Below, in pieces: positions 39,499 through 64,000 of a stretch of 64,000 nt of DNA. Every line of letters starts with the position of its first letter. Within the stretch, counting starts at the first letter, position 1. The position numbers were made by a program, and so were the translations under genes. The notes under the pieces were generated by a model that was given only the letters and a program-made list of their open reading frames with translations, was not told the DNA's origin and did not search any database. Source of the DNA: Candidatus Spongiisociaceae bacterium (GTDB lineage: Bacteria; Actinomycetota; Acidimicrobiia; Spongiisociales; Spongiisociaceae); assembly GCA_965202665.1 (NCBI GenBank), contig OZ241841.1:2400001-2464000 (forward strand), in the 5' to 3' direction.

Positions 39499-42312
39499 TC
39501 AGGCGTGGGCGTCTATCAGACGGGGGAGGGAATCATCGGGGGTCATCACTTCGAAAGCCCAACGGCCGAAGCCGCCGTGGGCGTTCACCGCTTCTATCCA
39601 ATCCCGCATGTACGCCCATTTGGAGTCGTCCAACTCTTTCGGTTCGCCTTTCACTTCCAACACCAGGGTGGTTCCGTTTGTCAGCCGGATCAGAAAATCG
39701 GGTAGGTAGCGGCGCACCACCCCCCGGTGCGCATAGGACACCTCAAACCCCAGATGGTCGTTTTTGACCCACGCCTCCACCGCCGGATTCCCGTCCAATT
39801 CGGGGGGTACCACCGGTTCGAAAGTCCCGTCGTAAACGCAGAAGTTGATGTGGCTGCGCCGGGCGGGCCCCACCGCTTTCCCGGTGTACCACACCCTCAT
39901 ATCCCCGGTGGAGCGGATGGGCTTTTCCGGGTCGAACACCGGCGTCAAACTTTCCGTGTTGGAAGACTCGATCGCCTCCCAGAAATGTTGCACGATGCGG
40001 GTCATGTTCATCCCGATCAGTATCCGCCGCCGCAACGGATTCTGGTTCCACAGCCCGTTGATGACGATCCGGTCCGACTCCAGAAACTTTAAGGTGAGGG
40101 CCACCAGCCGGGCGCACAAAGTTGCCCGGGCGCCCGGCCAGTCGGGGGCCATCTGGTCGAAGATTTCCGCCGCCGACCCGAAGGCCAGCTCCTGCAAGCG
40201 CCGCTCGCCCCAGAACTTTTCCAAGTCGATGCGCACATCCGCTTCGTCCGTTTTCCCTTCCACGGTTACCGCCAAATCAGCCATAGTGGGCGTGTTGCGC
40301 GGGTCCAGTTCCAGCGGTTTCACCTTCTCCCAGTCCAAAGAAAGGCCGGTGCGGTACGCCCGTTCCACCCGTATCACCACCGGGAATTTGATTTCAAACC
40401 GGGCTTTTTCCGGCAAAGGGCCGATAGGGGTTTTCGGCTTCGGCGGCTTCGGCGGCCCGCTCTGCGACTCGTGGGGCAGAAACGTGAACGGCACCCCGAA
40501 AATATTCACGTATTCCGGTTCGAAAAACCCGTGTTCGTTCACTTCGTAGGAGGTGCGGCGCAACCCCCGGCCCACCACCTGTTCGCACAACAACTGGCTG
40601 GTAAAAGCCCGCAACCCCATAATGTGGGTGACGGTTTTGGCGTCCCACCCTTCCGACAGCATGGCCACCGAAATCACATGCCGTATCCGCTCGCCCGGAT
40701 GCCCCTGCCGCCCGATGGTGTCCACCTGCCGCCGCAAGAGTTCGGCCCGTTGCTTTGCGTTCAGTTCCCCCGGCCCGTCTTCCGCCTCTTCCGCGCCCAG
40801 TTCGGCGACCGGGGTTTCGCTTTCTTCCGCCTTTTTGAGAGTGTTGGAGTCGATATGCAAAGTCAGTTGCGGGTCGCATAGTTCCGGAACCGGTATCCGC
40901 CCCCGGTCGAAGGCGTGTTTGACGCGGGCCGCCGTTTCAGTGCGGTTGGCGACGGTGATCATCACCGGCGGCGTCGGATGCTTCAACTCCTCCCAGGCGC
41001 GCCGGGCGGCCGCCCAGTCGGATCCGAGCAGGGTGTAGCCCGCCACCACCAGGTCGGGCAGCGGAGCTTCCGCTTTCGCCCGCCGGTTCAGGTCGGCTTT
41101 CACATCCTCATCGTTGTAAATGTGATACAGCCGGGATTTGAAAGTTTCCGGATCGTATTGCGTGTCGTCCCGCACTACCACCCGCGGCGTTTTCACCAAC
41201 CCCGATTCGATGGCGTCGTTCAGGCTGAAGTCGCTGACAATCCACCCGAACAGGGCTTCTTCGCTGGCTTTCTTACCGGAGGGGACGAAAGGGGTGGCGG
41301 TGAAGTCGTAACAGCGCAGGATGCCCCGCGCCCGATGCAGGCGGTCCAGCGCCTCCACCCATTTGGTGGCTTCCTCCAGGTCTTTTTTGAAAAACTCGTT
41401 TGCTAAGCGGCCGGGGGGTATGCGCCAGGCGTGATGGGCTTCGTCGTTGATGACCAGCAGATTGCGGGAGCGGGACATTTCGTCCCCCAGCGCTTCCCGC
41501 ACCCAAGCCTCATCGCTTTTCGCCCCCCGTTTGTCCACCGACCGCCTCCTTTTAATCTGCTCTTCGGTCTGCCAGCCCAAAGCGTGCCAGTTGCGCACCC
41601 GCACCCGCCCCTGCCGCAGGCGGTCCCGCAGGTTGGAGGGAACCAGGTCGAACTCGTCGAAGTAGTTGTCCGCATTTTGGGGGTCGATAACCGACAGTCG
41701 GCTGCGCACCGTCAGTCCGGGGGCCACCACCAGCACGTTGCGTGAGAAGCGGGGGTCGTTGGGATGGGTCACCTTGTTGAGAATCTGCCAGGCGATGACC
41801 ATCCCCATCACCACCGTTTTTCCGGCACCGGTGGCCATTTTGCAACATTCCCGAACGAACCCGCCCCCGTCGCCGGGAACATCGATTCCGGTGCGCTCCG
41901 AGTGGGGGGCTTCTATCAGCCACATCAGGGTTTCGATGGCTTCCAACTGGCAGAAGAACAGGCGCTTGTCATCGACTCCCCGGTTGCGCCAATGTTCCAA
42001 CAGGCGCCGGGTGACGCCGGTGGCCCCCGGATAGCCGGCCCGCCGCCAAGCAGCCACCCGCGGGCGGATGCGGTTGACCAGTTCTATCGGATGGAAGACG
42101 CCCGGGTCGTCGAAGGCCTGGGAGTCGGGGGTGGCCACCAAATATCCGGCTTCGCGGCGCCCTTCCACGTATTCGAATTCCCGCCCCGCCCGGTTGTAGC
42201 GCCAGTGGCTGGAAGGTTCGTTGTAAGGGGAGTTGACGATTAACCGGTCGATGCCGCCGGTGTGGGACAGGCCCCGTTGCGCCCCCTCGGTCGGCGGGCC
42301 TTTTTTGGCCAT
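39499..42312 (-). CDS. res: Type III restriction enzyme Res subunit (BPTD_3080-like)
   Basis: KMATGAGKT, INDEAHH, MLSEGWD, EQVVGRGLRR helicase motifs; C-terminal YLPDFLI...LEVKG PD-(D/E)xK nuclease; start overlaps the mod stop (TGATG). Confidence 0.92.
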   Translation of the reverse strand: MAKKGPPTEGAQRGLSHTGGIDRLIVNSPYNEPSSHWRYNRAGREFEYVEGRREAGYLVATPDSQAFDDPGVFHPIELVNRIRPRVAAWRRAGYPGATGVTRRLLEHWRNRGVDDKRLFFCQLEAIETLMWLIEAPHSERTGIDVPGDGGGFVRECCKMATGAGKTVVMGMVIAWQILNKVTHPNDPRFSRNVLVVAPGLTVRSRLSVIDPQNADNYFDEFDLVPSNLRDRLRQGRVRVRNWHALGWQTEEQIKRRRSVDKRGAKSDEAWVREALGDEMSRSRNLLVINDEAHHAWRIPPGRLANEFFKKDLEEATKWVEALDRLHRARGILRCYDFTATPFVPSGKKASEEALFGWIVSDFSLNDAIESGLVKTPRVVVRDDTQYDPETFKSRLYHIYNDEDVKADLNRRAKAEAPLPDLVVAGYTLLGSDWAAARRAWEELKHPTPPVMITVANRTETAARVKHAFDRGRIPVPELCDPQLTLHIDSNTLKKAEESETPVAELGAEEAEDGPGELNAKQRAELLRRQVDTIGRQGHPGERIRHVISVAMLSEGWDAKTVTHIMGLRAFTSQLLCEQVVGRGLRRTSYEVNEHGFFEPEYVNIFGVPFTFLPHESQSGPPKPPKPKTPIGPLPEKARFEIKFPVVIRVERAYRTGLSLDWEKVKPLELDPRNTPTMADLAVTVEGKTDEADVRIDLEKFWGERRLQELAFGSAAEIFDQMAPDWPGARATLCARLVALTLKFLESDRIVINGLWNQNPLRRRILIGMNMTRIVQHFWEAIESSNTESLTPVFDPEKPIRSTGDMRVWYTGKAVGPARRSHINFCVYDGTFEPVVPPELDGNPAVEAWVKNDHLGFEVSYAHRGVVRRYLPDFLIRLTNGTTLVLEVKGEPKELDDSKWAYMRDWIEAVNAHGGFGRWAFEVMTPDDSLPRLIDAHA

Positions 42313-44890
42313 CAGCCGGCTCGGTCGTCCAAACTGAGCAAACGCAGGCTTTCCACCCCCCGGTCGTCCACCACTTTCACCGCGACCCGCCGATGTTCGC
42401 CCGCCGGAAACGGCAACGAAACCGTGCCCCGGTAGGCCTCAATGCGGGACTGGTCTATTTGCGCCCGCAAGGTTTTAGCCAGCCTGTTCCACCCCCCGTT
42501 TTTCTTAGTTCCGTCCAGAGGGAAAAACACTTGGCGGGGAAATAGGCTGCGCCCGTCGTAGTCGGGATCCAGCATCCACACCGCGATCTTGTCCGCCCCC
42601 CCGGAGGTAACCTGCCCGGTGCGGGTATCGAAGTAGTCAAACCCCAGCACTTCCACCAGAAACTGCCCGTCGTCGGTGCGTTCCAGATGCACATCAGGCT
42701 GGCCGACCAACCAAAAACTCTCGTTGCCCGAACGGGCCTTCTTCAGGTCTGAGGTGAGCAGGTCGGCGTTCATCTGCGCCCGCAGCAAGGTAACGCCCGG
42801 CCAGTTGGTTTCCTCAATGTCTTTGGCCGCTTCCGGGTCAAACATGAAAGCGGCGAAAACCAACAGTTCCGGTTTGTGCGCCAAGGTGCGGGCATCTTCG
42901 ATAGCCCGTTCCACCTGCCGAGTTTCCAGGGGAGAATGCTCCGGCCCAAACGAAACCGCCAACCGAGACCCGTCATCGGTTTCACCTTCGGCATGCAAGG
43001 CGGGAAGAGGCAAAGGTTCCAGCCGGATCAGTTCGATACGATTCCCACCCGTTCCCCGCAACCCGGTCTTCAGCAGTTCATCCCGCCATTCAACCTGCCG
43101 TACGGATTCTCTACTTCGCGAAACTGATGCATCAGATGGGGGGGGGGGGTAGCGATTCCAGCGGATCTGCCAATGGCAGTACAGCAGGAGCAGGAACCGC
43201 CTCCATCGTGAAAGGACCGGTAACCCTTGTTTTACCGGTGTCTTTCAAAGGTTGGTCATATAGGGTTGTAACTTGAGGTGGTTCATCATAGGCTAGAATT
43301 CTCGCCGAAACTTTAGGCACCGTTTTGTAGACGAACCCACTCCCTACCCCCTCATCTGGTTGAGCTAACTTATAGTAATCAAAAACGGATGTCATAAGTC
43401 GCTGGCGAGCCAGAGTGAGTGCCACTCGGCTAGTGTCGCAAGTAATCCAACGCCGTCCCCATTGTTCCGCTACTACCGCAACAGTGCCACTCCCACAAGT
43501 GGGGTCTAACACTAAATCACCAGGGTCTGTAGTCATTAATATGCACCGTGTTATTACACTACGGGCTGTCTCTACTATATATTGTTTATTGTGAGCTGCC
43601 ATAGGGGTGTTCCAGAAATTATTGATTCTCCGTCCTGGTACTTCGTCCTCATAATACTTATACCTAAGGTTATCTGAGGTGTCTAAAGAATGGAGTCGTC
43701 CTAATTCTGCTAAGTGATCTAGGCCTTTTTTAGATACACTCCACTGGCTATTGGATCGACAATGGTACATCTTACCGTTCCATTCATAGGGTTCGGAACG
43801 GCCAGTTGTTGACCAGCCTTGAGAAGTTAAACTTACGCGTTGAAAAATTCTTGCATCTTTAGGTAAAATATCAGGATCAAACCTCTCCTCGTTAGTTAAT
43901 TTACGAATTGCACCATCTGCTAACTCAAGAAAGACATAAGAGCTAAAAAACTCAATTATTTCCTTTCGATTAATAAGTTGTTCAAATAGATGATGATATT
44001 TTACTAAAGATCTATCTTTCGTATACCACAGTAGATAGTTTGCTACATCTGGTAAAGTATTGCCAGAGCTCCCTCCTGAAGTTGCATAGCTTATAATAGT
44101 AACGCGGTTTTCAGCTCCAAATATTTCATCCATCAGTAATCCAACTCGTAATATATTTTCATCGCCTATTTGTACGAAACAACTGCCTGATGGAGTGAGT
44201 AGTTCGCGGGAGAGCAATAATCTATCTCGCAAATAAGACAGATAGGAGTGGATTCCCATTTCCCAAGTATCTCGGAAAGCTTTAATCATTTCCGGTTCGG
44301 TAGTTAGGTGTTCCCCCTTGCCATCTTTTACTTGGTTCTGATTGACGAAGGGCTGGAAGTTGGAGCCGTATTTGATGCCGTAGGGGGGGTCGATGTAGAT
44401 CATCTGGACTTGACCGCCCAAGGATTCTTTTTCCAGGAGACTGTTCATCACCAGCAGGCTGTCTCCCGCAACGAGGCGGTTGCTCCAGTTGTGGGGGTGC
44501 CGGTAGAACTCGATGGCTTTGCGCAGGGGAGGATTTTCCTCCTCTGTCTCAAACAGGGACTCCTGCCCCTCCGGGTGTCCGTTGCGCTTGCGCACCGCCT
44601 CCATGATGGTGCGGGGATCGATCCGCTCGTGGACATGCAGGGAGACGGTAGGGACGGCGAACGATGCCCCCTCCGCCTTGCCCGCCCAGTTCAGTCGGGG
44701 GTCGATATGCGGGTCATGATCCGCCGGGTGGTTATAGGGGGGGGGGGGGTGGCTTCGGGTGCTCGTAGGTTTGGGCGGGCAGGTCGGGATCGCCCTCCGC
44801 CGTCACCAAGCCCGCGGGCGGGTTGTTGGTGCGCTCCTTGTCGGAATGCGTATAGCTCTTGATGGGCTTGGTCGTCTTGGGCTTGGCCAT
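42312..44890 (-). CDS. mod: Type III adenine methyltransferase Mod, split into three frames by two poly-C tracts (phase-variable or frameshifted)
   Basis: Frame 1 MAKPKT...HPKPPPP; frame 2 DPRLNWAGK...VPTVSLHVHERIDP...DPPY...DPTCGSGT...GPFTMEAVP; frame 3 SDASVSR...EWRDELLKTG...VAVKVVDDRGVES. Removing one C from each tract gives a single 858-aa ORF. Confidence 0.9.
43138..43149 (-). repeat. C12 homopolymer in mod (G12 on +); in frame at 11 or 14
   Basis: Coding strand CTA-C12-ATC-TGA; the conserved continuation requires CTA-Cn-A-TCT. Confidence 0.9.
44737..44749 (-). repeat. C13 homopolymer in mod (G13 on +); in frame at 12 or 15
   Basis: Coding strand CCA-C13-TA-TAA; the conserved continuation is TAT AAC CAC...GAC CCC CGA CTG AAC TGG. 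Confidence 0.9.
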
Positions 44891-46681: not shown

Positions 46682-46950
46682 CGGGACGGCCATGTCGCTC
46701 ATTACAAACCCGGAACATACCCGGAACAGATTTGACGGGTGATCCCTCCGCCATTGGCCCCATGCTCGGCGTGGATGACCCCGACCCTTCCGCTCTCAGC
46801 GCGGAGCGCGGAACGCAACGGGCCGCGCCGCGTTCCCGGTTCGGTCCGCCCGATGGGGTAAATCAACCCCAAGAGGCCGCGGAGCAACCGGAATACGGGG
46901 GGGGGGGGGATAATTCCCGGTGGCCCCGCTGACCGGGCGAGCCAAACCCG

Positions 46951-52547: not shown

Positions 52548-54026
52548 GTGACTCCCCGCCTCCGAATCGCCCCTTCCCCCACCGGGTTTCTGCATGTGGG
52601 CAACGTGCGGGCGGCCCTGTTCAACTGGTTGCACGCCCGCCGCACCGGCGGGGTTTTCATCGTCCGCATCGACGACACCGACCGGGCCCGTTCGGAGGAA
52701 AAATATGTTTCCGACATCGTGTCCGGGTTGCGCTGGCTGGGTTTGGACTGGGACGAAGGGGCGGAAGCGGGGGGGCCGCACGGCTCATACCGCCAGTCGG
52801 ACCGGTTCGACCGCTACCGGGAGGCGGCGGAAGGCCTGGTTTCCGCGGGGCGGGCCTATCGCGATTTCCGCCCGGCGGGAAAGCTGGACGAATTGCGGTC
52901 CCGAGCGCAGGCGGAGCGCAAACCCCCCGGTCATTACATCCGCCGCCCGGATGACTCCGATGCGGAACGGGATCGGGCCCGGGCGGAGGCGGGGGAGGAG
53001 GCGACCATCCGGTTTTTGGTTCCCCCCGGGGAGGCGGTGGCTTTCACCGACCGGGTGCGGGGGGAGGTGCGGTTCGAGGCGGAGGCGGTGGACGACTTCG
53101 TGATCCTGCGCTCCGACGGGTCGCCCACCTATCATCTGGCTTCCGTAGCGGACGATGTGGACTACCGGATCACCGACGTGGCCCGGGGGGAAGATCTGCT
53201 GTCCTCCACCCCCAAGCACATTCTGCTGACCCGGGCTTTGGGGGCGGAGCCGCCCCGCTACGCCCATCTGCCTTTGCTGTTGGGGCCGGACGGGCGCAAA
53301 CTTTCCAAACGGCACGGGGACACCGCCCTGCGGTTTTACCGGGAGGCCGGTTTTCTGCCGGACGCGGTGTTCAACTACATGAGCCTGCTGGGATGGTCGT
53401 TGCATCCGGAAAACGAAGTGTTTTCCCGGGCGGAGGCGACGGCCGCGTTTGATTTGGACGATGTGCAGAAAAGCCCCGCCGTCTTCGATACTGAAAAACT
53501 GGAATGGATGAACGGGTTGTACATCCGGGCTCTGCCGGCGGCGGAATTCGCGGAGTCGGCTTTGGCGGCGGCGGCCGGCGGACTGGGGCGGGAGTTGCCG
53601 GAGGCGGAGCGGGAGAGGTTGCGGGCGATCGCCCCCCTGGTGCAGGAACGGGTGCGGCTGCTGTCGGAGGTGACCCCCATGGTGCGGTTCCTGCTGGAAG
53701 AGGTGGAATACGATGAGGCGGCCTGGGCGAAGGTCATGAAAGAAGAGGCCCGCCCGGTTCTGGAGGCGGCGGCGATCGCGTTGCAGGCGGTGGAGCCGTG
53801 GGGCAAAGAGGGGATAGAGGAGGCCCTGCGGGGGATGCTGGACGTACTGGGGGTGAAGCCCCGCAAAGGACTGCAGCCGATCCGGGTGGCGGTAACCGGC
53901 TCCAACGTTTCCCCGCCGCTTTTCGAAAGCCTGGCCGCCCTCCCGCAGGCGGAGGCGCTGGCCCGCATCAAATCGGCCGCCTCCCGCCTGGGGGAGACCG
54001 CGGTACCAGCGAATGGGCTAGACTAA
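52548..54026 (+). CDS. gltX: Glutamate--tRNA ligase
   Basis: RIAPSPTGFLHVGN (HIGH), RIDDTD, LRWLGLDWDEG, RGEDLL, KLSKRHG (KMSKS), IRVAVTG...SPPLF. Confidence 0.96.
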   Translation: MTPRLRIAPSPTGFLHVGNVRAALFNWLHARRTGGVFIVRIDDTDRARSEEKYVSDIVSGLRWLGLDWDEGAEAGGPHGSYRQSDRFDRYREAAEGLVSAGRAYRDFRPAGKLDELRSRAQAERKPPGHYIRRPDDSDAERDRARAEAGEEATIRFLVPPGEAVAFTDRVRGEVRFEAEAVDDFVILRSDGSPTYHLASVADDVDYRITDVARGEDLLSSTPKHILLTRALGAEPPRYAHLPLLLGPDGRKLSKRHGDTALRFYREAGFLPDAVFNYMSLLGWSLHPENEVFSRAEATAAFDLDDVQKSPAVFDTEKLEWMNGLYIRALPAAEFAESALAAAAGGLGRELPEAERERLRAIAPLVQERVRLLSEVTPMVRFLLEEVEYDEAAWAKVMKEEARPVLEAAAIALQAVEPWGKEGIEEALRGMLDVLGVKPRKGLQPIRVAVTGSNVSPPLFESLAALPQAEALARIKSAASRLGETAVPANGLD

Positions 54027-54040
54027 GGACTTCCCCGGTG

Positions 54041-54116
54041 GGCCCCGTCGTCCAGCGGTCTAGGACGCTGGCCTTTCAAGCCAGAAACGCGGGTTCGAAT
54101 CCCGTCGGGGCCACCA
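54041..54116 (+). tRNA. tRNA-Glu(TTC)
   Basis: Acceptor GGCCCCG/CGGGGCC; anticodon arm CTGGC-CTTTCAA-GCCAG; T-arm GCGGG-TTCGAAT-CCCGT; ACCA end encoded. Confidence 0.96.
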
Positions 54117-54238: not shown

Positions 54239-54319
54239 GCTTAGGTCCGGTCTGGTGCGCGGCGCTCGAAATGCCGTAGGGGTTTTCGCCCCTCGTGGGT
54301 TCGAATCCCACCCCCTCCG
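54239..54319 (+). pseudogene. 5'-truncated tRNA-Ser(CGA)
   Basis: Anticodon arm CGGCG-CTCGAAA-TGCCG, long variable arm GGGG-TTTTCG-CCCC, T-arm GTGGG-TTCGAAT-CCCAC and 3' acceptor CCCCTCC-G are present; the required 5' GGAGGGG is missing. Confidence 0.75.
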
Positions 54320-54365
54320 CTTTTGTCGGTGGGCGGGTTTGGCGGCGGGGCGGGCGGGCGGCGGT

Positions 54366-54394
54366 TTGACATATTGGGGGGGGGGGGTTAGGGT
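54366..54394 (+). promoter_or_regulatory. Sigma-70-type promoter TTGACA-N17-TAGGGT with a G12 tract in the spacer
   Basis: TTGACA 54366-54371; G12 54376-54387; TAGGGT 54389-54394; about 90 nt upstream of giant gene 2. Confidence 0.75.
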
Positions 54395-54483
54395 TTTGGG
54401 TGCTGGGCTTGTTGTGGGTTCAGTAGCCCGTTGCGGCGGCGGGTTTGGTATTGGTTCGCCGTTGGAGAGTTTGGAGGTTGGTG

Positions 54484-57400
54484 ATGGGGCGGATGTCGGG
54501 GTTGGGTTCGGTGGGTGGGGTGTGGGGGCGTGTGTTGGGGTTGGGTTTGGCGGTGGTGTTGGTGGTGGGGTTGTTGCCGTTGGTTCCGGTGGGGGTGGAG
54601 GGGCAGACGCGGACTATTTCGTTTAGGATTACGGATCGGAATAATAATCCGGTTTCGGCTGTTACTGAGAATGCTGGGGATTTGCGGTTGCGGCTTCATA
54701 TGGATATTTCGCCTGCGGCGCATAAGGGCGGTTCTGTGTATTTTAATACGGGTGGTAGCGCTACTCGTCATACGGATTATGGGTTTGGTTATGCTGACCA
54801 ATGTTGTATATCTGCTGGTAATTGGTATAGTCATGTCCAAGATAATTCGTGGCTTTCTTGGGGTACTGGGGATACTCATAAATCAGTTGATTTTACGTTG
54901 AGGATGGTGGATGATAGGTTGTTTGAGTATTATGAGTCGTTTAAGATTGTGAGGGGTACTGCTACTGATGGTTTTACGTATGCGAATTCTGAGGTGGGGT
55001 TGTCTGTGATTGATCAGGATCGTAGGTTGGGGGTGTCGTATTCTGTTAGTGAGGTGGGGGAGAGTGCGGCGGGGCAGTGGCGGTCGGGTACGGTGACGTT
55101 GAGTAGGGGGGATGTTTCGAGTGGGGTGTTTGTGCCTGCTACGGCGAATTGGACTACTTATGGTGTTAATCCTTTGCAGGTGAAGGTGGTGGATGGTTCT
55201 GCGAAGAATGAGGTGGCGGGGGTGACGGATGAGAGGCGTGATTTTGTGTTTTCGCATTTTAATGATGTGGTGGTTGCGAATCGGCGGATTGTTAGTGTTG
55301 CTAAGGGGCAGGTGTCGGGTACGGTTGGTGATGTCGGGTTTCGGGTTTTGTCGGAGGTGGGGGAGCGGGTGGCGGAGCCGCCGGAGGTGTTTTATGTGAC
55401 GGTGGATACTTCTCCGGTGTGGGGGGCGCCGGTGACGATTGTGGATGATGATGTGACTATTGCGTTGTCGTCGTCGTCGTCTAATAGTTCTTTTGCGGGG
55501 TTCGCGGAGAGTGATATTCCGCAGCCGGTGACGGTGACGGCCCGGTTTTTGCATGCGGCTCGTTCGGTGATTCCTACGGATACGGTGGTGAATGTGAGTG
55601 TGAAGTCGTTTTCGGATAGTCCTGTGTTGACGGGTGGGGGGGCGGTGGTGTCGTCGGGGGCGTGTCCGCAGACGAGTGGGGATGTGTGTTTGGATGTGGG
55701 GAATTCGTTTACGGTGACGATCCCGGCGGGGCAGGTGAGTGGGTCGAGGACGGTTTTGATGACGGCGCGGGATGAGGGCGGTACGGCGGAGGGGGTGGAG
55801 GGGGTGGGGTTGGATGGGTCGGCGTCGGTGGGGGGGGAGGCGGTGTTTGTGTATGGTCATGCTATCCGGGTGTATGATGCGGCTGACGCGAAGGTGATTG
55901 GGTTGTCGTTGCATGAGGCGGCGACGGGGGAGGCGGGGTTGTCGTCGGTGGGGGAGGGGGTTGGGAAGGCGGTGCGGGTGCGGGCTACTATGGCTGGGTC
56001 GTGGCAGTCGGTGTGGGAGTCGCGGTATTCGAGGGTGGTGTGGGTGACGCCGGGTTCGGTGAGCGGTTCGGCTACGTTGGGGTCGTGTTCGGGTTCGGGT
56101 CAGAGCCGGGTGTGCACGGGGGATTTCGGGCGGAGCGCGGGGGAGGTGTCGGTTCGTATGGGGTCGGATGATTCAGCGACGGTGGGGGATGTGACGATCA
56201 CTACGTATGATGATACGGTGACGGAGGATGGGGAGTCGGTGGTGTTTTGGGGTCGCTCCAATTCGCAGTGGGTGGTCGCTCCGGCGATGTTGACTATTAA
56301 TGATGGGGATCGGTATGTGGATTTGAGCGTGTCGCCGTCGACGGTAGCGGAGCCTGCGTCGGGCAATACCCGTAATGATATGCGGTTGACGGCCCGGTTT
56401 GGGCAGATGGTTGGTAATGTGTTTGTTCCGTCGACGTCCAGCACTCATAGCAGTAGTTTTACTTCGCGGTTGTATTTTCGGGACCAGTCGGCGACGCAGG
56501 AGGACGATCAAGGCAATGTAGATGATTTTTATCAGATTGGCTTTTCTTTTAGGGATATTTCCATCGCGGCTGGTTCGGTGTCGGGGTCGGTGACGTGGCC
56601 TTTCAACTTTTATGCTGATAATAAGGCGGAGGGTACGGAGGATTTCCGTTTTGAGTGGGGGAACAGCCAGGTAGCGGGTTATAGTTTGTCGCCGAATCCC
56701 AACGTGTATATCACAGATCCGGATTCGGCGCTTAATCTGTCGATAGACGCTGATGGGGGAACAACTGGGGTGCAGCCGTTGCGGGAGGGGGAGTCGTTGT
56801 CGGGGGCGGTGGGGGTGGCGGCGTTTTCGGCGGGTTCGTCTACGATCGGGTCGGCGACTTCGGTTGTTTTGTCTGCGGGGTTGGGTGCGCCGGGGGCGGG
56901 GGTGGCGTCGGCGGTTGATTTCACGTATGCGCCCGCTTCCCCGAACACGGTTTCGGTGGCGGCTAATAGTGTGTCGGGGTCGGCGGCGTTGGGGGGGTTG
57001 GCGGTGGTGGATGATGGTGTGGTGGAGGGTCCGGAGACGTTTGTTTTGTCGGGGGTGGTTACGGGGGTGGCGGGGGTGTCGGCGGCGGATAGTTCGGTGA
57101 CGATTGTGGATGATGATGCGGATATTGATTTGACGGTGTCGGAGTCGTCGGTGCTGGAAGGAGCCGGGGAGCAGGCGATCACGGTGAGGGCGGCTTTTAG
57201 GGGGAGCAGTTCCGTTTTGACGGCGGCGACTGATGTGACGGTGACGTTGGCGAGCGCGGCGTCGGGTGGGGCGGTGTTGTCGTCGGCGGTGTGTCCGCAG
57301 ACCAGTGGAGACGTGTGTTCCGACAAGACCAATAATCAGTTCACGGTGTCCATCCCGGCGGGCGCCACCAGCGGGTCGGCGACGTTGCGGCTGACCGCCC

Positions 57401-60400
57401 GGGACGACGGCAACGCGGAGGGGGGAGAGGGGCTGGTGTTGTCGGGGACGGCGTCGGTGGGGGGCGCGGCGGTGGCGGTGGCGTCCGCGGAGATTAGCGT
57501 GTTTGATCCGGGGCAGGCGATTGATTTGTCTTTGACCGACACCGCGCAAACTCCTGTGGCGTTGACGGCGGTGGGGGAGGACGGGGGGGCGCGGGTGGTG
57601 CGGGTGACGGCTACTGCTCCGGCGGCGGTGTCGGCGGAGACGGTGGTGTCGGTGACGGTGGGCGCGGCGGGGGGTTCGGCTGATCCGCAGTCGTGCGCGG
57701 GGTCGGGGCAGAACGAGGTTTGCACGGGAGGGGATTACGCAAAGTCGGATCCGGCGACGATCACTATTCCGTCGGGAGGGACGAGCGGGTCGGTGGATGT
57801 GACGGTCACCCCGTTGGAGGACACCATATCAGAAGAGAACGAGACGATCCGCGTCGGGGGTTCGGCGGGGGGGTATGCGGTGCGGGGGGCTGATTTGGAA
57901 ATCACCGACCAGGACCGAACGGTGGGGATAGGGGTGGGGGAGGGGGAGGCGTCGTACGGGGAGGGTGGGGATCCGCAGTCGGGCTGGGCCACCCGCAGCC
58001 AGTGTATGACTTCCGCTCCGTTTTCCAGGACGGTGACCGGCCGCCTGGGTGGGTTGTCGGCGGAGGGGGTGTTCACCGCGTCTACCTCCTCGACGTTGGG
58101 TAGTAATGTGCGGGGGCGGGTGCGGACGGTGGATGGAACGGCTACTTATAATCAGGATTATTCGTCGGATGGGTTCGCGGTGGACACCATGCCTACCGCG
58201 TGGGAGTTTATTACCATCGCGGCTGGTTCCACGTCGGGGACGGCGACGGTGCAGTTGGTGAGTTGCGTGGATGACGTGGCGGAGGGGGATGAGACTTATC
58301 AGATGACTATTTCCAGCCTTCCGGCGGGTTTCGGGGCGGATCCTCAGTTGATGACGGTGACCGATGATGACAGCCGTCCTGGGTTGCGGGGGAGCGTGTC
58401 GGAGGACGCGGGCGGAACAGTGGGGGTGGAGGCTTTCCTCCCGGCGGGGTCGTCGGAGTTGACCGACCCGCTGGTGGTGTCTTTGACGTCGGTGATCGCC
58501 GACAGCGCGGGGACGGCTGATTTTTCTTATCCGTCGCCCGCGCCGGTGCTGTTGACTATCCCGGCTGGTTCCACTTCGGTCAGCGGCGCCATCCCGGGGT
58601 TGGCTATCACTGATGATGGGAGCGTGGAGGGGCCGGAGCGGTTGACTTTGGGCGGGACGGACGCGTCGGGGGCTGCGGTGTCGGGTTCGTTGGCTATCGT
58701 CGATGACGACGCGGTGATAGATGTGCTGGTTTCCCCGGCGGAGGTGTTGGAGCAGGCCGCCGCTCAACAGATCGGGGTGACCGCCCGTTTCCGGGGAGAA
58801 ACTTCCGCGTTGACCGCGGCGACGGCGGTGACGGTTACGTTGGCGGGGGCGCAGAACGGGGCTACGTTGGCGGCGGCGTGTCCGGCTACTTCTGAGGATG
58901 CTTGCACCGACCAGGCCAACAACCAGTTCACCATCAGCATCCCCGCCGGGAGCGTTGAGGCGTCTGGGTCGTTTATGCTGACCGCCCGCAGCGACAACGC
59001 GGCGGACAACGACGAAGACCTGACCGTATCCGGCGCGGCCACTATCGGGGGGGAAGCGGCGGTGGTGGAGGGGACGGAGTTGACGATTTACGATCCGGGC
59101 CGGTCCATCGCGTTGAGTTTTACTGACACTGCTTCTACGCCGGTTCCGTTGGTGGATGTGGGGGAGGATGGGGGGGCTAAAGTGATTCGGGTGGTGGCTT
59201 CTGCGCCGGTGGCGCCGACGTCGGCGGTGGTGGTGGATGTGGTGGTGGGGGCGGAGGGTACTACGGCTGGGGCGGGGGATTATTCGTCGAGTTCGGATAG
59301 GGTGTCGGTGACTATCGCCGCCAACGACACCAGCGGGACGGCGGATGTGACTATCACCCCCGCGTCGGATACCATCACCGAAGACTTGGAGATTATCCGG
59401 TTCGCCGGTTCAGCTACTGGGTATGCGGTGGTGGCGAATGATTTGGTGATACAGGATCAGGATCGGGCGGTGAAGGTGATGGCGGCGGAGGGGGATCTGG
59501 TGGTGCGGGAGCCTAGGGAGGGGGAGGCGTTGACTAACCAGTATAATGGCATTCTCAAGTTTTTCCGGGGTATGACGGCTGTTTTGGGCGGGGTGTCGGG
59601 CGGGGTGTTCACCCCCTCTACCTCTTCTACTTACAGTTCTAATTTGGGGATGCGGGTGCGGGTTGATGCGGGGTCGGCCACCGTGGGCGGCCAGACTAGC
59701 ACTACCGACGATATCTTCCATGAGCACGGCGAGGCGGACGACCCGCTGGAGGTGACTATAAACGCGGGGGCCCTTTCCGGTAATGTGAATATAGTGTACG
59801 CTCCCACCGCGGTTCCGGTGGTTGCTGTTTTGAAGGACACGGTGGCGGAACCGGATCAGATCTTTTACTTCCGTCCCGCCGTTCCCTCCGGTTGGACCGC
59901 GGTCAGGGAGACGATCACCATCCAAGACTCCAACCAGATAGCGATAACGGTGGACACTGACAGCGCGACGGGAACCCAGACCACGCTGGCGGAAGGCGCC
60001 ACCGGTTCCGGCGTGACCGTTTCCGCCGCCTACTACAACGCCACCACCTCGGTAATAGCCTCCGCTACCAACGTGACTCTGTCAGCCGCCGCCCCCACCC
60101 CGGCCGGAGCCGGGAAGGCCGTCGCCGCCGACTTCACCTACACCCCGGCCACGCCCAATACCATCACTTTCCCCGCTAACAACGCCACCCCTTCAGCCAC
60201 CGCCACCCTAACCGGGTTGACGGTCACCGACGACGCGATTGTGGAGGGGCCGGAGACGATTACCATTAGCGGTTCTTCCCCGTTAGGCGACGCCACCCCC
60301 GCTACTATAACCATCGTCGACGACGACGACGACATCACGCTGTCAGTGTTCCCCGCCTCAGTAGCGGAAGGCTCGGGTACGCAGACGATAACGGTTACCG

Positions 60401-63400
60401 CCGCTTTCGCGGGAACCACCTCCGCCCTGACCGCCGCCACCGACGTGACGGTGACGGTCGCTTCCGCGTCCAGCAACGGTGCCACCCTGGCCGCCTGCCC
60501 CTCCTCCACCACTGATGTGTGCGTTACCGGTTTGACCAGCAGCCAGCTGACCGTGACCATCCCCGCCGGGGAAACCAGCGGCGCCGCTACTTTCCAGCTC
60601 ACCGCCCGCGACGACACCACCGCCGACGATGATGAGAAACTGACGGTAACCGGCTCCGCCACCGTCGGCGGCGCAACAGCTACGGTCACCGGAACCGAAA
60701 TGTCGATGCGGGATCCGGGGCGGGCGATTACGTTGAGTTTCACTGACACCGCCCAAACCCCCGCCGCGCTAACCGCAGTGGAAGAAGACGGCGGCGCGCA
60801 GACGGTGCGGGTGGTGGCCACCGTCGGGACGGCCCCCACCGCCGACACCGACGTAACAGTCACCGTAGGCGCCACAGGCGGCACCGCCACCTTGGGAACG
60901 CTAGGGGACTATCTACGCAGCGCCGGGGAGGCAACGGTGACCATCGCGGCGAATGACACCAGCGGAACCGCCGACGTAACCATCACCCCCGTGCAGGACA
61001 GGGTCACTGAAGATCACGAAACTATCCGCTTCGCGGGCGCCGCTACGGGGTATGCGGTAGTACCAGCCGATCTACAGATCATCGACCAAGACCGGGTTAT
61101 CAAGTTCACTTTGAACCCGGACACGATTGACGAGTGGGCTTCCCGCCGTAGCTCGGTTGTTTCGGATGGCACCGCTACTTTAGGAGGCACCTCCGGCGGC
61201 GTGTTCACTCCTTCCACGTCCTCTACTTACAGTTCCAATATGAATTTGCAGGCGTGGTCCCCTGAAGGTTCTGGCAATAGCCAAAATACTAGAACTATTG
61301 CTAGATATCACGTATATGACTGGGAAAGTTATTTGTTTTATTTGAGGAAATATTTTAATATTCCGTCTGGTTCACTCACCGCTTCGCAAGACATATCACA
61401 TTCCGTCGAGGTAAACAACACAGCGGATCCGGATGAGGCGATTAAACGGCTGGGAGCGAGGACGCTTCCAGCGGGGTTCACTCAGGAAAGAGCCTGGATT
61501 AAGGTGCGGGACGTGACGGATTCGCGGGTGGTGTTCAGGGTGGACACCGACGGCAACACTATGGGCAACCAGACCGAAATAGCGGAGGGTGCTTCCGGCA
61601 CAGGAGTGGAAGTATGGGCGGGATGGCCCTCCGGAGTCACCGCTACCCGTCACACGACGCCGGTCACGGCCACTCTTACTATCGAAGAAGATACGGAACC
61701 GGAGGCGGGGGAGGCGGGCGACGCCGATTTTGATTACGCTCCGCCGTCGCCGCTGTCGTTTACCATTCCTGTTAAGGTGGCGGAGGATCTTATGGCTACG
61801 CCTCCGGTGGTGGGTGTGTCTGGGTTGAAGAGTTCTTCGGGGACGTTGGCGGGTTTGTCGGTGGTGGATGATTCGATTGTGGAGGGTCCGGAGACGATAG
61901 CGTTTGGCGGTACTTCCAGTCTGGGTGCCGGGCATCCCGTTTCGGGGGAGTTGGTTATCGCCGATGATGATGCTGATATTTCGTTGTCGGTGTTCCCGGC
62001 GGTGGTAGCGGAAGGGTCGGGGGCGCAGACGATTACGGTTACCGCCCGTTTCGCGGGAACTAGCTCGGTGTTGACTGCGGATACTGTTGTGACGGTGACT
62101 GTTGCGGCGGCGTCGTCGGGTGGGGCGGTGGTGTCGTCGGCGGTGTGTCCGCAGACCGGGGATGATGTGTGTACCGACAAAACGAGCAATCAGTTTACGG
62201 TTACTATCCCGGCCGGGCAGTTGCTGGGGAGCGGTTCTTTCCAGTTGACCGCCCGGGAGGACTCCACCGCCGACGACGAAGAAGGCCTGACGATTTCAGG
62301 CTCAGCCGCGGTGGGGGGGGCGGCGGTGGAGGTGACGGGGACGGCGATGACGGTCCGCGACGCGGATAAGGCGATCACGCTCACTTTGACTGATACCGCG
62401 CAAACCCCGGCCGCGTTGACCGAGGTAGAAGAGGATGGCGGTGCGCAGACGGTGCGGATAACGGCTACTGCTTCGGCGGCGGTGGGCGCATCCCCGGTGA
62501 ACGTAACGGTGATGGTGGGCGCGTCGGGCGGCGACGCGCTGTTGAACACTGATTTCACTCGTAGTTCGGCTACGGCGACGATTACTATTCCCGCGCAGGG
62601 CACGAGTGGTTCGGCGGATGTGACCATAACGCCCCTGTCGGATACCATCACTGAGAATCGGGAGATGATATGGTTTACTGGTTCTGTTGCTGGGTATGGG
62701 GTGGTGGCGGCTGGTTTGGGGATTGCGGATCAGGATCGGTTTATTCGGGTGTCTCCTTTGGTTGATCGGTACACGGAGCCCTTACCTGGTGGTTTCAGTT
62801 ATACTACTCATCAGGTGGGTTTTAGAGCTGATTTGGGGGGTGTGTCTGGTGGGGTGTTCACTGCTTCGACGGCTTCTGCTTACAGTGCCGGTTTGAACAA
62901 TTTGCGGGTGACGATGCGGGAGGGGACGGCGTTGGATTATACTGGGCCATGTCCGTTAGTGAGCTGTGATTGGCGTTGGAATGGTAATTTAGGTCAGGTG
63001 TTGGTGTCTATTCCGGCTGGTTCTTTGTCTGCTACGTTGGCTGCTTCGGCTTTTAGCACTTTGCAGGTGTATAGGTATGGCCCGGTGGCGGAGGCGGTGG
63101 AGACGATAGAGGTGGTGGTGGCTGAGCCGGCGGGTTTTACTGTCGTTGCGGGGATTATCAGCATTGTGGACGAATACGATACTCGGGTTGCTTTGCAGGT
63201 GGATACTGATGGGGATACTGATGGTTATCAGACGGTGATAAGGGAGGGCGGCTCTGGTTCGGTGTCGGTGTCGGGGAGTTTCCGGTCGGGAACGGTCAAC
63301 GAGGTAGGTTCGGATGTGGCGGTGGCTTTGTCGACGGCGGTGGAAATCTCGGGGGCGGGGAAGGCGGTTGCGGCTGATTTCTCGTATGCGCCGCCGTCGC

Positions 63401-64000
63401 CGAATTCTTTCACCATCCCGGGCGCAGCCGTTGACCATGACGGCGACGGCGGTGACTCAACTGCGATGCCCCCAGTTCCTGGGACCGACCCCAGGGTTAT
63501 TTCTTATTCGTTGGTTCCGGCCACGCTAACTGGGTTGACAATTGTGGATGATACGATTGTGGAGGGCCCGGAGACGTTTTTGGTGAACGGTACGTCTTCG
63601 TTGGGGGCGGTTACGGCGGCGACGGTGATTATTGGGGATGATGATGTTGATGTGGATTTGTCGGTGTCTCCGTCGTTGGTGGCGGAGGGGGCGGGGGCGC
63701 AGACGATTACGGTTACCGCTCGTTTCAAGGGTTCTAGTACTGTGTTGACGGAGGCGGTGGATGTGACGGTGCAGGTGGCGGGCGCGTCGGGCGGCGCGGC
63801 GTTGGCGACTGCGCCGTGTCCGCAGATGTCGGGGGATGCTTGTACGGATAAGACGGATAATCGGTTTACGGTTACTATTCCGGCGGGGTCGTTGTCGGCT
63901 AACGGAACGTTCCAGTTGACCGCCCGCGACGACAACGTCGCCGAGGGGGCCGAGGCTTTGACCGTGAGCGGTTCGGCTATGGTGGGGGGTTTGGCGGTGC
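54484..64000 (+). CDS. Second giant secreted Calx-beta/Ig-like repeat protein; 3'-partial, not in the ORF track
   Basis: GGAGG RBS then GTG-ATG; signal peptide MGRMSGL...RVLGLGLAVVLVVGLLPLVPVGVEG|QTRTISF. Frame +1 gives Calx-like domains up to the window end (...DDNVAEGAEALTVSGSAMVGGLAV). The track lists no terminated ORF in this frame, which implies >3,170 codons without a stop. Confidence 0.9.
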   Translation, partial: MGRMSGLGSVGGVWGRVLGLGLAVVLVVGLLPLVPVGVEGQTRTISFRITDRNNNPVSAVTENAGDLRLRLHMDISPAAHKGGSVYFNTGGSATRHTDYGFGYADQCCISAGNWYSHVQDNSWLSWGTGDTHKSVDFTLRMVDDRLFEYYESFKIVRGTATDGFTYANSEVGLSVIDQDRRLGVSYSVSEVGESAAGQWRSGTVTLSRGDVSSGVFVPATANWTTYGVNPLQVKVVDGSAKNEVAGVTDERRDFVFSHFNDVVVANRRIVSVAKGQVSGTVGDVGFRVLSEVGERVAEPPEVFYVTVDTSPVWGAPVTIVDDDVTIALSSSSSNSSFAGFAESDIPQPVTVTARFLHAARSVIPTDTVVNVSVKSFSDSPVLTGGGAVVSSGACPQTSGDVCLDVGNSFTVTIPAGQVSGSRTVLMTARDEGGTAEGVEGVGLDGSASVGGEAVFVYGHAIRVYDAADAKVIGLSLHEAATGEAGLSSVGEGVGKAVRVRATMAGSWQSVWESRYSRVVWVTPGSVSGSATLGSCSGSGQSRVCTGDFGRSAGEVSVRMGSDDSATVGDVTITTYDDTVTEDGESVVFWGRSNSQWVVAPAMLTINDGDRYVDLSVSPSTVAEPASGNTRNDMRLTARFGQMVGNVFVPSTSSTHSSSFTSRLYFRDQSATQEDDQGNVDDFYQIGFSFRDISIAAGSVSGSVTWPFNFYADNKAEGTEDFRFEWGNSQVAGYSLSPNPNVYITDPDSALNLSIDADGGTTGVQPLREGESLSGAVGVAAFSAGSSTIGSATSVVLSAGLGAPGAGVASAVDFTYAPASPNTVSVAANSVSGSAALGGLAVVDDGVVEGPETFVLSGVVTGVAGVSAADSSVTIVDDDADIDLTVSESSVLEGAGEQAITVRAAFRGSSSVLTAATDVTVTLASAASGGAVLSSAVCPQTSGDVCSDKTNNQFTVSIPAGATSGSATLRLTARDDGNAEGGEGLVLSGTASVGGAAVAVASAEISVFDPGQAIDLSLTDTAQTPVALTAVGEDGGARVVRVTATAPAAVSAETVVSVTVGAAGGSADPQSCAGSGQNEVCTGGDYAKSDPATITIPSGGTSGSVDVTVTPLEDTISEENETIRVGGSAGGYAVRGADLEITDQDRTVGIGVGEGEASYGEGGDPQSGWATRSQCMTSAPFSRTVTGRLGGLSAEGVFTASTSSTLGSNVRGRVRTVDGTATYNQDYSSDGFAVDTMPTAWEFITIAAGSTSGTATVQLVSCVDDVAEGDETYQMTISSLPAGFGADPQLMTVTDDDSRPGLRGSVSEDAGGTVGVEAFLPAGSSELTDPLVVSLTSVIADSAGTADFSYPSPAPVLLTIPAGSTSVSGAIPGLAITDDGSVEGPERLTLGGTDASGAAVSGSLAIVDDDAVIDVLVSPAEVLEQAAAQQIGVTARFRGETSALTAATAVTVTLAGAQNGATLAAACPATSEDACTDQANNQFTISIPAGSVEASGSFMLTARSDNAADNDEDLTVSGAATIGGEAAVVEGTELTIYDPGRSIALSFTDTASTPVPLVDVGEDGGAKVIRVVASAPVAPTSAVVVDVVVGAEGTTAGAGDYSSSSDRVSVTIAANDTSGTADVTITPASDTITEDLEIIRFAGSATGYAVVANDLVIQDQDRAVKVMAAEGDLVVREPREGEALTNQYNGILKFFRGMTAVLGGVSGGVFTPSTSSTYSSNLGMRVRVDAGSATVGGQTSTTDDIFHEHGEADDPLEVTINAGALSGNVNIVYAPTAVPVVAVLKDTVAEPDQIFYFRPAVPSGWTAVRETITIQDSNQIAITVDTDSATGTQTTLAEGATGSGVTVSAAYYNATTSVIASATNVTLSAAAPTPAGAGKAVAADFTYTPATPNTITFPANNATPSATATLTGLTVTDDAIVEGPETITISGSSPLGDATPATITIVDDDDDITLSVFPASVAEGSGTQTITVTAAFAGTTSALTAATDVTVTVASASSNGATLAACPSSTTDVCVTGLTSSQLTVTIPAGETSGAATFQLTARDDTTADDDEKLTVTGSATVGGATATVTGTEMSMRDPGRAITLSFTDTAQTPAALTAVEEDGGAQTVRVVATVGTAPTADTDVTVTVGATGGTATLGTLGDYLRSAGEATVTIAANDTSGTADVTITPVQDRVTEDHETIRFAGAATGYAVVPADLQIIDQDRVIKFTLNPDTIDEWASRRSSVVSDGTATLGGTSGGVFTPSTSSTYSSNMNLQAWSPEGSGNSQNTRTIARYHVYDWESYLFYLRKYFNIPSGSLTASQDISHSVEVNNTADPDEAIKRLGARTLPAGFTQERAWIKVRDVTDSRVVFRVDTDGNTMGNQTEIAEGASGTGVEVWAGWPSGVTATRHTTPVTATLTIEEDTEPEAGEAGDADFDYAPPSPLSFTIPVKVAEDLMATPPVVGVSGLKSSSGTLAGLSVVDDSIVEGPETIAFGGTSSLGAGHPVSGELVIADDDADISLSVFPAVVAEGSGAQTITVTARFAGTSSVLTADTVVTVTVAAASSGGAVVSSAVCPQTGDDVCTDKTSNQFTVTIPAGQLLGSGSFQLTAREDSTADDEEGLTISGSAAVGGAAVEVTGTAMTVRDADKAITLTLTDTAQTPAALTEVEEDGGAQTVRITATASAAVGASPVNVTVMVGASGGDALLNTDFTRSSATATITIPAQGTSGSADVTITPLSDTITENREMIWFTGSVAGYGVVAAGLGIADQDRFIRVSPLVDRYTEPLPGGFSYTTHQVGFRADLGGVSGGVFTASTASAYSAGLNNLRVTMREGTALDYTGPCPLVSCDWRWNGNLGQVLVSIPAGSLSATLAASAFSTLQVYRYGPVAEAVETIEVVVAEPAGFTVVAGIISIVDEYDTRVALQVDTDGDTDGYQTVIREGGSGSVSVSGSFRSGTVNEVGSDVAVALSTAVEISGAGKAVAADFSYAPPSPNSFTIPGAAVDHDGDGGDSTAMPPVPGTDPRVISYSLVPATLTGLTIVDDTIVEGPETFLVNGTSSLGAVTAATVIIGDDDVDVDLSVSPSLVAEGAGAQTITVTARFKGSSTVLTEAVDVTVQVAGASGGAALATAPCPQMSGDACTDKTDNRFTVTIPAGSLSANGTFQLTARDDNVAEGAEALTVSGSAMVGGLAV

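Follow-up and report, generated by a model that had tools for sequence, protein, structure and literature searches.

A poly-G promoter spacer as a probable slipped-strand switch of giant SLH-anchored surface proteins in a sponge-associated actinobacterium

The window analyzed here, a stretch of 64,000 nt from a Candidatus Spongiisociaceae bacterium (contig OZ241841.1 of assembly GCA_965202665.1, 2,400,001 to 2,464,000, forward strand), raises the question whether a run of twelve G residues between two predicted promoter hexamers switches the giant surface-protein gene downstream of it. The source genome (G000) consists of one 2.77-Mb contig with 64% GC and is 94% complete. The family belongs to the Acidimicrobiia. 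A sponge-associated host is supported: five of the 22 sequencing runs listed for the genome, none of them an RNA run, carry the label sponge metagenome, and runs X8 and X9, both sponge metagenomes, contain pieces of 0.6 and 2.8 kb near-identical to it. The sole genome of the same genus in our comparison is G001. The locus comprises the following features, given in window positions:

54366..54371, plus strand: predicted -35 hexamer TTGACA; the pair TTGACA..TAnnnT is enriched genome-wide at spacers of 17-19
54372..54388, plus strand: 17-nt spacer TATT-G12-T; sister copies read TATT-G11-T, which gives 16
54376..54387, plus strand: G12 homopolymer, the slippage-prone element, among 75 G/C runs of at least 11 in the genome
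54389..54394, plus strand: predicted -10 hexamer TAGGGT, of the TAnnnT type
54400..54402, plus strand: expected transcription start, inferred from a distance of 6-8 nt 3' of the -10
54473..54478, plus strand: Shine-Dalgarno sequence GGAGGT, 5 nt before the ATG at 54484
54484..64000, plus strand: giant surface-protein gene, an open reading frame of 4473 aa from the ATG that ends at genome position 2467905

A first-pass annotation had described TTGACA and a TAnnnT hexamer 17 bp apart with twelve of the spacer bases forming a G run, and its coordinates proved exact. A stock promoter scan called no site at TTGACA-TATT-G12-T-TAGGGT, because TAGGGT matches TATAAT in three of six positions and thus falls below the threshold. 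Being G-rich, this -10 may be weak. The sequence supports a predicted sigma-70-type promoter whose spacer length is set by the G run. The 1.2 kb downstream of the promoter are skewed toward G (0.40); this skew is too weak to yield G12, and a chance product of the local G/T skew was ruled out. Just 5' of the -35 lies a 21-nt G-rich insertion (54340-54360) that is unique to the window copy; contigs of runs X2 and X7 span it without differences.

The locus is one of many. Genome-wide, we found 24 sites in which TTGACA precedes a poly-G run, 23 of them in front of genes for large SLH surface proteins and one in front of a methylase gene. The products behind the 23 sites fall into three families with SLH matches and signal peptides, comprising 11 (~1850-2400 aa), 3 (~4500 aa) and 9 (~1200-1400 aa) members. 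In a crude ORF set, tracts occur at 27 of 35 SLH-like ORFs of at least 1100 aa and at none of the 14 below 900 aa. TTGACA lies 4-5 nt 5' of 24 of the 76 runs of at least 9, against ~0.013 expected if both were independent; the 24 sites are paralogous and therefore not independent, as this expectation assumes. A TAnnnT hexamer follows within 0-1 nt at 24/24 of the TTGACA sites, in the form TAGCGT (20), TAGGGT (3) or TAAGAT (1), but at only 1 of the 52 other long runs. The copy number of these promoters is inflated by duplication. The methylase site, TTGACA-AAAC-G11-TAGCGT with spacer 15 (genome 846185-846205), precedes an N6/N4 methylase-HNH gene, and the AAAC form recurs in three loci of G001. 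Many copies, e.g. at genome 1460524, 1583553 and 1947347, have an upstream box in tandem form, TTGAC-TTGACA. The genome encodes four sigma factors whose region 4 bears a motif of the housekeeping type; they represent several candidate readers of the promoter.

The runs themselves stand apart from the background of the genome. G/C runs of length 7 and 8 number 865 and 96, respectively, a single run has length 9 and none length 10, while 24, 28 and 14 runs have lengths 11, 12 and 13. Extrapolating the decay of the shorter runs predicts ~2 runs of at least 11, where 75 were observed, and ~30 runs of 9-10, where one was observed. The length spectrum is thus bimodal.

The spacers of the poly-G promoters are mostly shorter than those of ordinary promoters. 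De-duplicated ordinary TTGACA..TAnnnT pairs peak at 17 (17 cases) and 18 (19 cases), followed by 19 (10), 16 (6) and 15 (2), other lengths occurring 1-8 times each. Among the 24 poly-G promoters, 8 have spacers of 15, 11 of 16 and 5 of 17, so that 19/24 stand at 15-16. The 40 sites of G001, tallied from match lengths, read 19 (15 nt), 15 (16 nt), 2 (17 nt), 3 (18 nt) and 1 (19 nt), with 34/40 at 15-16. Fisher tests of poly-G against ordinary spacers gave p values of 7e-8 for this genome and 7e-12 for G001, both overstated as the copies are related. Near-identical copies differ in tract length, from G11 to G13 here and up to G15 in G001. Since most copies are 1-2 nt short of the optimum and the window copy is at the optimum, most of them would be off or low and the window copy on. 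The proposal of the first-pass annotation that G12 represents the ON state is therefore borne out as probable, judged by ordinary promoter spacers (peak 17-18). Its further claim that a change of one G in either direction dims the promoter probably holds in one direction: loss of one or two G should dim it, judged by this genome's other promoters, while gain of one probably does not, because spacer 18 is used freely, as often as 17, by the ordinary promoters.

Homopolymers between promoter hexamers are known from other bacteria. In porA of Neisseria meningitidis and tp0126 of Treponema pallidum, as far as the consulted part of the source describes, a poly-G tract sets the -35/-10 spacing, with 17 nt being optimal and shorter spacers silencing (PMC7864442). 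The window locus resembles them in a poly-G run of at least nine between hexamers, here predicted ones, upstream of a surface-protein gene. In addition, the optimum of 17-18 is straddled by paralogue lengths of 15-17 here and 15-19 in G001, and the product is likely surface-exposed, given a signal peptide recognized by eye and matches to Calx-beta and SLH.

We consider it likely, judging from the sequence, that the G12 run acts as a slipped-strand transcriptional switch of the giant SLH-anchored protein. The run occupies 12 of the 17 nt that separate TTGACA from TAGGGT. Judged by the other promoters of the genome, a spacer of 17 or 18 nt would give activity, one of 16 nt little and one of 15 nt almost none; G12 and G13 would then represent ON states, G11 a low state and G10 an off state. 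Slips would persist: MutS and MutL gave no match in the 94% complete genome, which does encode NucS and one DinB. The mycobacterial NucS of M. smegmatis leaves 1-2 bp indels unrepaired according to the part of PMC11551767 consulted, and a C9 run in this organism mutates at >1% (PMC10159617, section 10). This slippage behavior may carry over, by analogy, to the sponge symbiont. With one cassette in front of 23 surface genes and one methylase gene, a common mode of regulation appears plausible. As 19 of the 24 sites stand at 15-16 in the consensus, any one cell would expose just a small subset of these costly proteins, while the population would be mixed.

What would be switched is a giant protein with a putative signal peptide at about residues 1-40 (by eye), followed by Calx-beta, a Gly/Pro linker and a C-terminal SLH region. 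The Pfam match to Calx-beta scores 36.6 bits (cut-off 27), that to SLH (PF00395) 21.3 bits and thus marginally above the cut-off of 20.8, while a sister copy reaches 28.3. SLH domain and signal peptide together are those expected of an SLH-anchored surface protein. The gene had been annotated as a costly adhesin; surface protein stands, while the label adhesin draws solely on the Calx-beta and SLH domains. A single-sequence fold of the N-terminal 427 aa was unusable (pLDDT 30). The three ~4,500-aa paralogues are mosaics, one pair being identical over ~1000 columns, and they are least alike in the first 250 residues (60-74% alike), far from the wall anchor. The window copy is the sole member with spacer 17; both sisters carry G11 (16). 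Giant genes at window 54400-64000 and genome 2217400, 766738 and 492598 show a GC skew that declines from their 5' ends (~+0.5) to their 3' ends (-0.2); the first 1.2 kb of the window gene comprise 40% G and 13% C. One might speculate that such a C-poor 5' transcript could limit Rho loading. Two tRNA features bear on the origin of the unit:

54041..54116, plus strand: tRNA-Glu(TTC), the probable insertion site, 3' of gltX (52548-54026)
54245..54320, plus strand: 5'-truncated copy of tRNA-Ser(CGA); the intact gene lies at genome 2217376-2217465, before a sister promoter (genome 2217490)

Because the tRNA-Ser is truncated here and intact before the sister promoter, the window unit is likely a duplicate of the tRNA-Ser locus, inserted behind tRNA-Glu. 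G001 likewise has tRNA-Ser followed by a poly-G promoter, and its match over gltX-tRNA-Glu ends just past tRNA-Glu, before the giant gene.

The first-pass annotation had also suggested looking for the same design upstream of another giant gene of the window and of further paralogues. It was found at the paralogues, whereas that gene (12,727 aa) has a poly-C version instead, TTGCTT-T-C13-TCTT-TATCAT, with spacer 18. Poly-C runs lie at genome 2390131, 1172644, 2167818 and 1652180, before genes of 12,727, 10,398, 1,528 and 8,080 aa, respectively. Those before the 12,727- and 10,398-aa genes fit -35/-10 spacers of 18; the one before the 8,080-aa gene shows no clear boxes, and a similar run occurs in G001.

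Besides promoters, long runs are found within coding regions. Of the 52 other long runs, 24 or more fall inside restriction-modification (RM) or methylase genes, which Pfam matches or direct paralogy place among type I, III, ISP, Eco57I-like and solitary kinds; some six further runs occur in DUF1156, DUF4007 or SNF2 genes. The Pfam scan covered 23 tract-bearing proteins, 6 of which gave no match. The window itself holds an example:

42312..44890, minus strand: type III mod gene in three pieces, by reading frames, split at two coding-strand poly-C tracts
44737..44749, minus strand: C13 tract toward the 5' end of mod, not in frame in the assembly
43138..43149, minus strand: C12 tract within the 3' part of mod, likewise not in frame in the assembly

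The middle piece contains N6_N4_Mtase and ResIII lies downstream, so that repeat tracts interrupt a mod frame adjoining res. In type III mod phasevarions, the mod gene is frameshifted by repeats, and the split mod gene of the window is like them. In contrast to these phasevarions, poly-C occurs here in type I, type ISP and Eco57I-like systems as well, with up to four tracts per gene. At the sequence level, the idea of contingency tracts in both surface and methylome genes is thus supported, both classes carrying tracts. A crude classifier with a high false-positive background called 14 of 33 coding long runs frameshift-like, against 140 of 866 runs of 7-8. Among the out-of-frame tracts, some deviate by +1 and others by -1. 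In such genomes, RM genes with a frameshift may represent OFF phases, not pseudogenes. At genome 1215758-1232851, three type ISP RM genes stand in tandem and contain 11 poly-G tracts, several of which fall in the region for C-terminal specificity; in two of these genes, the frame is broken at a tract of this kind. Other long runs comprise a G13 run (window 46897-46909), situated between ORFs in the vicinity of transposase-like pieces and a DUF222-HNH gene, a G33 run with which a 604-aa ORF ends (genome 640404-640436) and a C12-A13 junction (genome 2473121-2473145), the only long A/T run in the genome.

For tract lengths in other populations, evidence was taken from Logan contigs, which drop minor alleles. 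Four of the 22 listed runs were compared at the window tract; run X1, possibly the source of the assembly, was left out of the counts. Contigs one G shorter and one G longer were found in X2 and X7, and one two G shorter in X8. These alleles are unassignable because 20 upstream and 22 downstream bases are common to a paralogue. In X2, the +G contig and a +GG contig from another promoter share a depth of 11.5 and may be one and the same. Many X7 depths lie near 500 and look capped, which makes them unfit for allele shares. The sole sister tract that is wholly unique, at genome 1466368 (G12, spacer 17), was bridged gap-free and unchanged in all three covering runs (X2, X7 and X9, from three studies), X10 lacking coverage (3/4 runs bridge). 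The assembled length is thus confirmed at this site, with no majority shift among the three runs, whose contigs hide minor alleles. Constant G12 fits selection for ON or slow change. A JGI metagenome scan yielded 13 pattern matches, 0/13 with a blastn match to the genome, and thus no further strains.

Could the promoter be real and the G run a slowly changing tuner, spread by duplication and gene conversion, so that lengths vary between copies and strains but not between sister cells? The constancy at genome 1466368 would agree with this, as would the resemblance of the window locus to a copy of the tRNA-Ser locus, the identical kilobase blocks shared among paralogues and the precedent of Cutibacterium acnes, whose 54 mostly G/C tracts vary slowly by clade and not through active switching in the part of the report consulted (PMC4746626). 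On the other hand, length differences between near-identical copies, the near absence of runs of 9-10, as expected of unstable runs that are selected against, and slippage above 1% of a C9 run in a NucS-type actinobacterium (PMC10159617) speak against it, and we regard it as unlikely, albeit as the most serious competitor of the switch.

It is considerably less probable that spacer length is not what is read, and that the run acts through an activator, a G-quadruplex spanning the -10 and the start site, or another sigma factor that tolerates spacers of 15-16 nt. Most copies stand at 15-16, possibly their working length, four group-1/2-like sigma factors are present, a G4 motif covers 54376-54407, and the opc and tprL tracts are said to act without a change of spacing (PMC7864442, in part). 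Yet the -35 is a perfect TTGACA, and ordinary promoters show no excess of 15-16-nt spacers. G4 motifs are frequent in the genome (1353, ~0.5 per kb), and copies of the TAGCGT type have no TTAGGG-TTTT-GGG part. Finally, homopolymers are error-prone, the sequencing platform is not on record and many coding tracts are out of frame, so one might suspect sequencing or assembly artefacts in the long runs or their lengths. However, G12 at genome 1466368 was reproduced exactly in three runs, +1 and -1 changes both occur among out-of-frame tracts and the runs occupy conserved functional positions in five genomes. We consider such artefacts very improbable.

Beyond the genus, a looser pattern was detected in 4 of 28 other genomes of the family and in none of 32 genomes of other families. 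In a second genus of the family (g4), all three genomes contain G11+ runs in predicted promoters of related surface-gene arrays (1, 12 and 18 matches). The hexamers differ (TTGATT, TTGACT, TTGCGG), while the G run still precedes a TAnnnT box, and some surface genes carry a second tract in the signal-peptide region. In G009 and G004, five loci (L159, L160, L161, L165 and L166) carry paired tracts separated by ~100-210 bp: the first belongs to the predicted promoter, and the second lies within the coding region of the signal peptide or immediately 5' of it; such two-tract genes likely form a double switch. Since the pattern was not found in the single-contig family genomes G002, G008 and G015, its absence from relatives is not solely a matter of fragmentation. 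Among 400 genomes of the class and 300 of the phylum, three and one, respectively, gave one or two matches each, and a scan of species genomes returned at least 114 loci, mostly single copies, in many phyla. The promoter design thus occurs widely, unlike its expansion. MAGs at chromosome level from Spirochaetia, Acidimicrobiales, Azotimanducaceae, Arenicellales and Vicinamibacterales contain one or two TTGACA-G11+-TAG sites (L029, L031, L034, L084, L086, L091).

How does the proposed switch compare with known systems? While porA and tp0126 are single genes in pathogens, 24-40 copies per genome occur in the sponge-associated actinobacterium and its congener, mostly 1-2 nt short, and serve a methylase as well as SLH proteins of three families. 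The vlp genes of Mycoplasma hyorhinis have a poly-A tract between their -35 and -10 hexamers, and the vlhA genes of M. gallisepticum use GAA repeats. Both are comparable in that a whole surface family, with its own repeat switch per gene, allows combinatorial display; they differ in their repeat units and in encoding lipoproteins of wall-less pathogens, while the proteins here are giant and SLH-anchored. In Bordetella fim genes, the tract spaces the BvgA activator site from the -10, whereas in the sponge symbiont a consensus -35 precedes the run, and an activator would be unnecessary at the window promoter, given its consensus -35. The promoter C-stretches of fim2, fim3, fimX and fimN alter transcript level in a small paralogous family of surface genes, according to the part of PMC1891110 consulted, and are the nearest parallel to the poly-C designs of the 10,398- and 12,727-aa genes. 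The actinobacteria C. acnes and Gardnerella contain tens of G/C tracts, many upstream of genes (PMC4746626; PMC11287997), and one C. acnes tract sits between -35 and -10 (PMC4746626). Supplements aside, a repeated promoter cassette is not described in the consulted parts of these two reports, and C. acnes tracts change slowly, by clade. For sponge Acidimicrobiia, enrichment of Calx-beta and RM genes is described, and the term phase variation appears 0 times in the main text of PMC11706023, which was consulted in part. Our literature search, with subscription papers and supplements outside its reach, returned no report of such switches in sponge symbionts. Thus, the mechanism is known from porA and tp0126, while its lineage and scale were not found in print.

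Taken together, we tentatively propose, with somewhat less than even confidence, that these symbionts run a default-off bank of 24-40 surface promoters across the genome, all derived from a single portable poly-G cassette, plus ~30 frameshift tracts in restriction and other defence genes, so that each cell would receive a random coat and methylome. This would hedge, at a scale comparable to mucosal pathogens, against phage and sponge phagocytosis, with the floor at G11 reflecting a slippage balance without MutS/MutL. The frameshifted RM genes of such genomes call for caution before they are named pseudogenes. The question touched is how uncultured symbionts persist amid the phagocytosing cells of a filter feeder and dense phage. 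Should the switch prove real, pathogen-style contingency loci would extend to a presumed mutualist, in a class for which we found no report of them, and 24-40 loci would have a state readable from DNA, the spacer length predicting which surface proteins are expressed.
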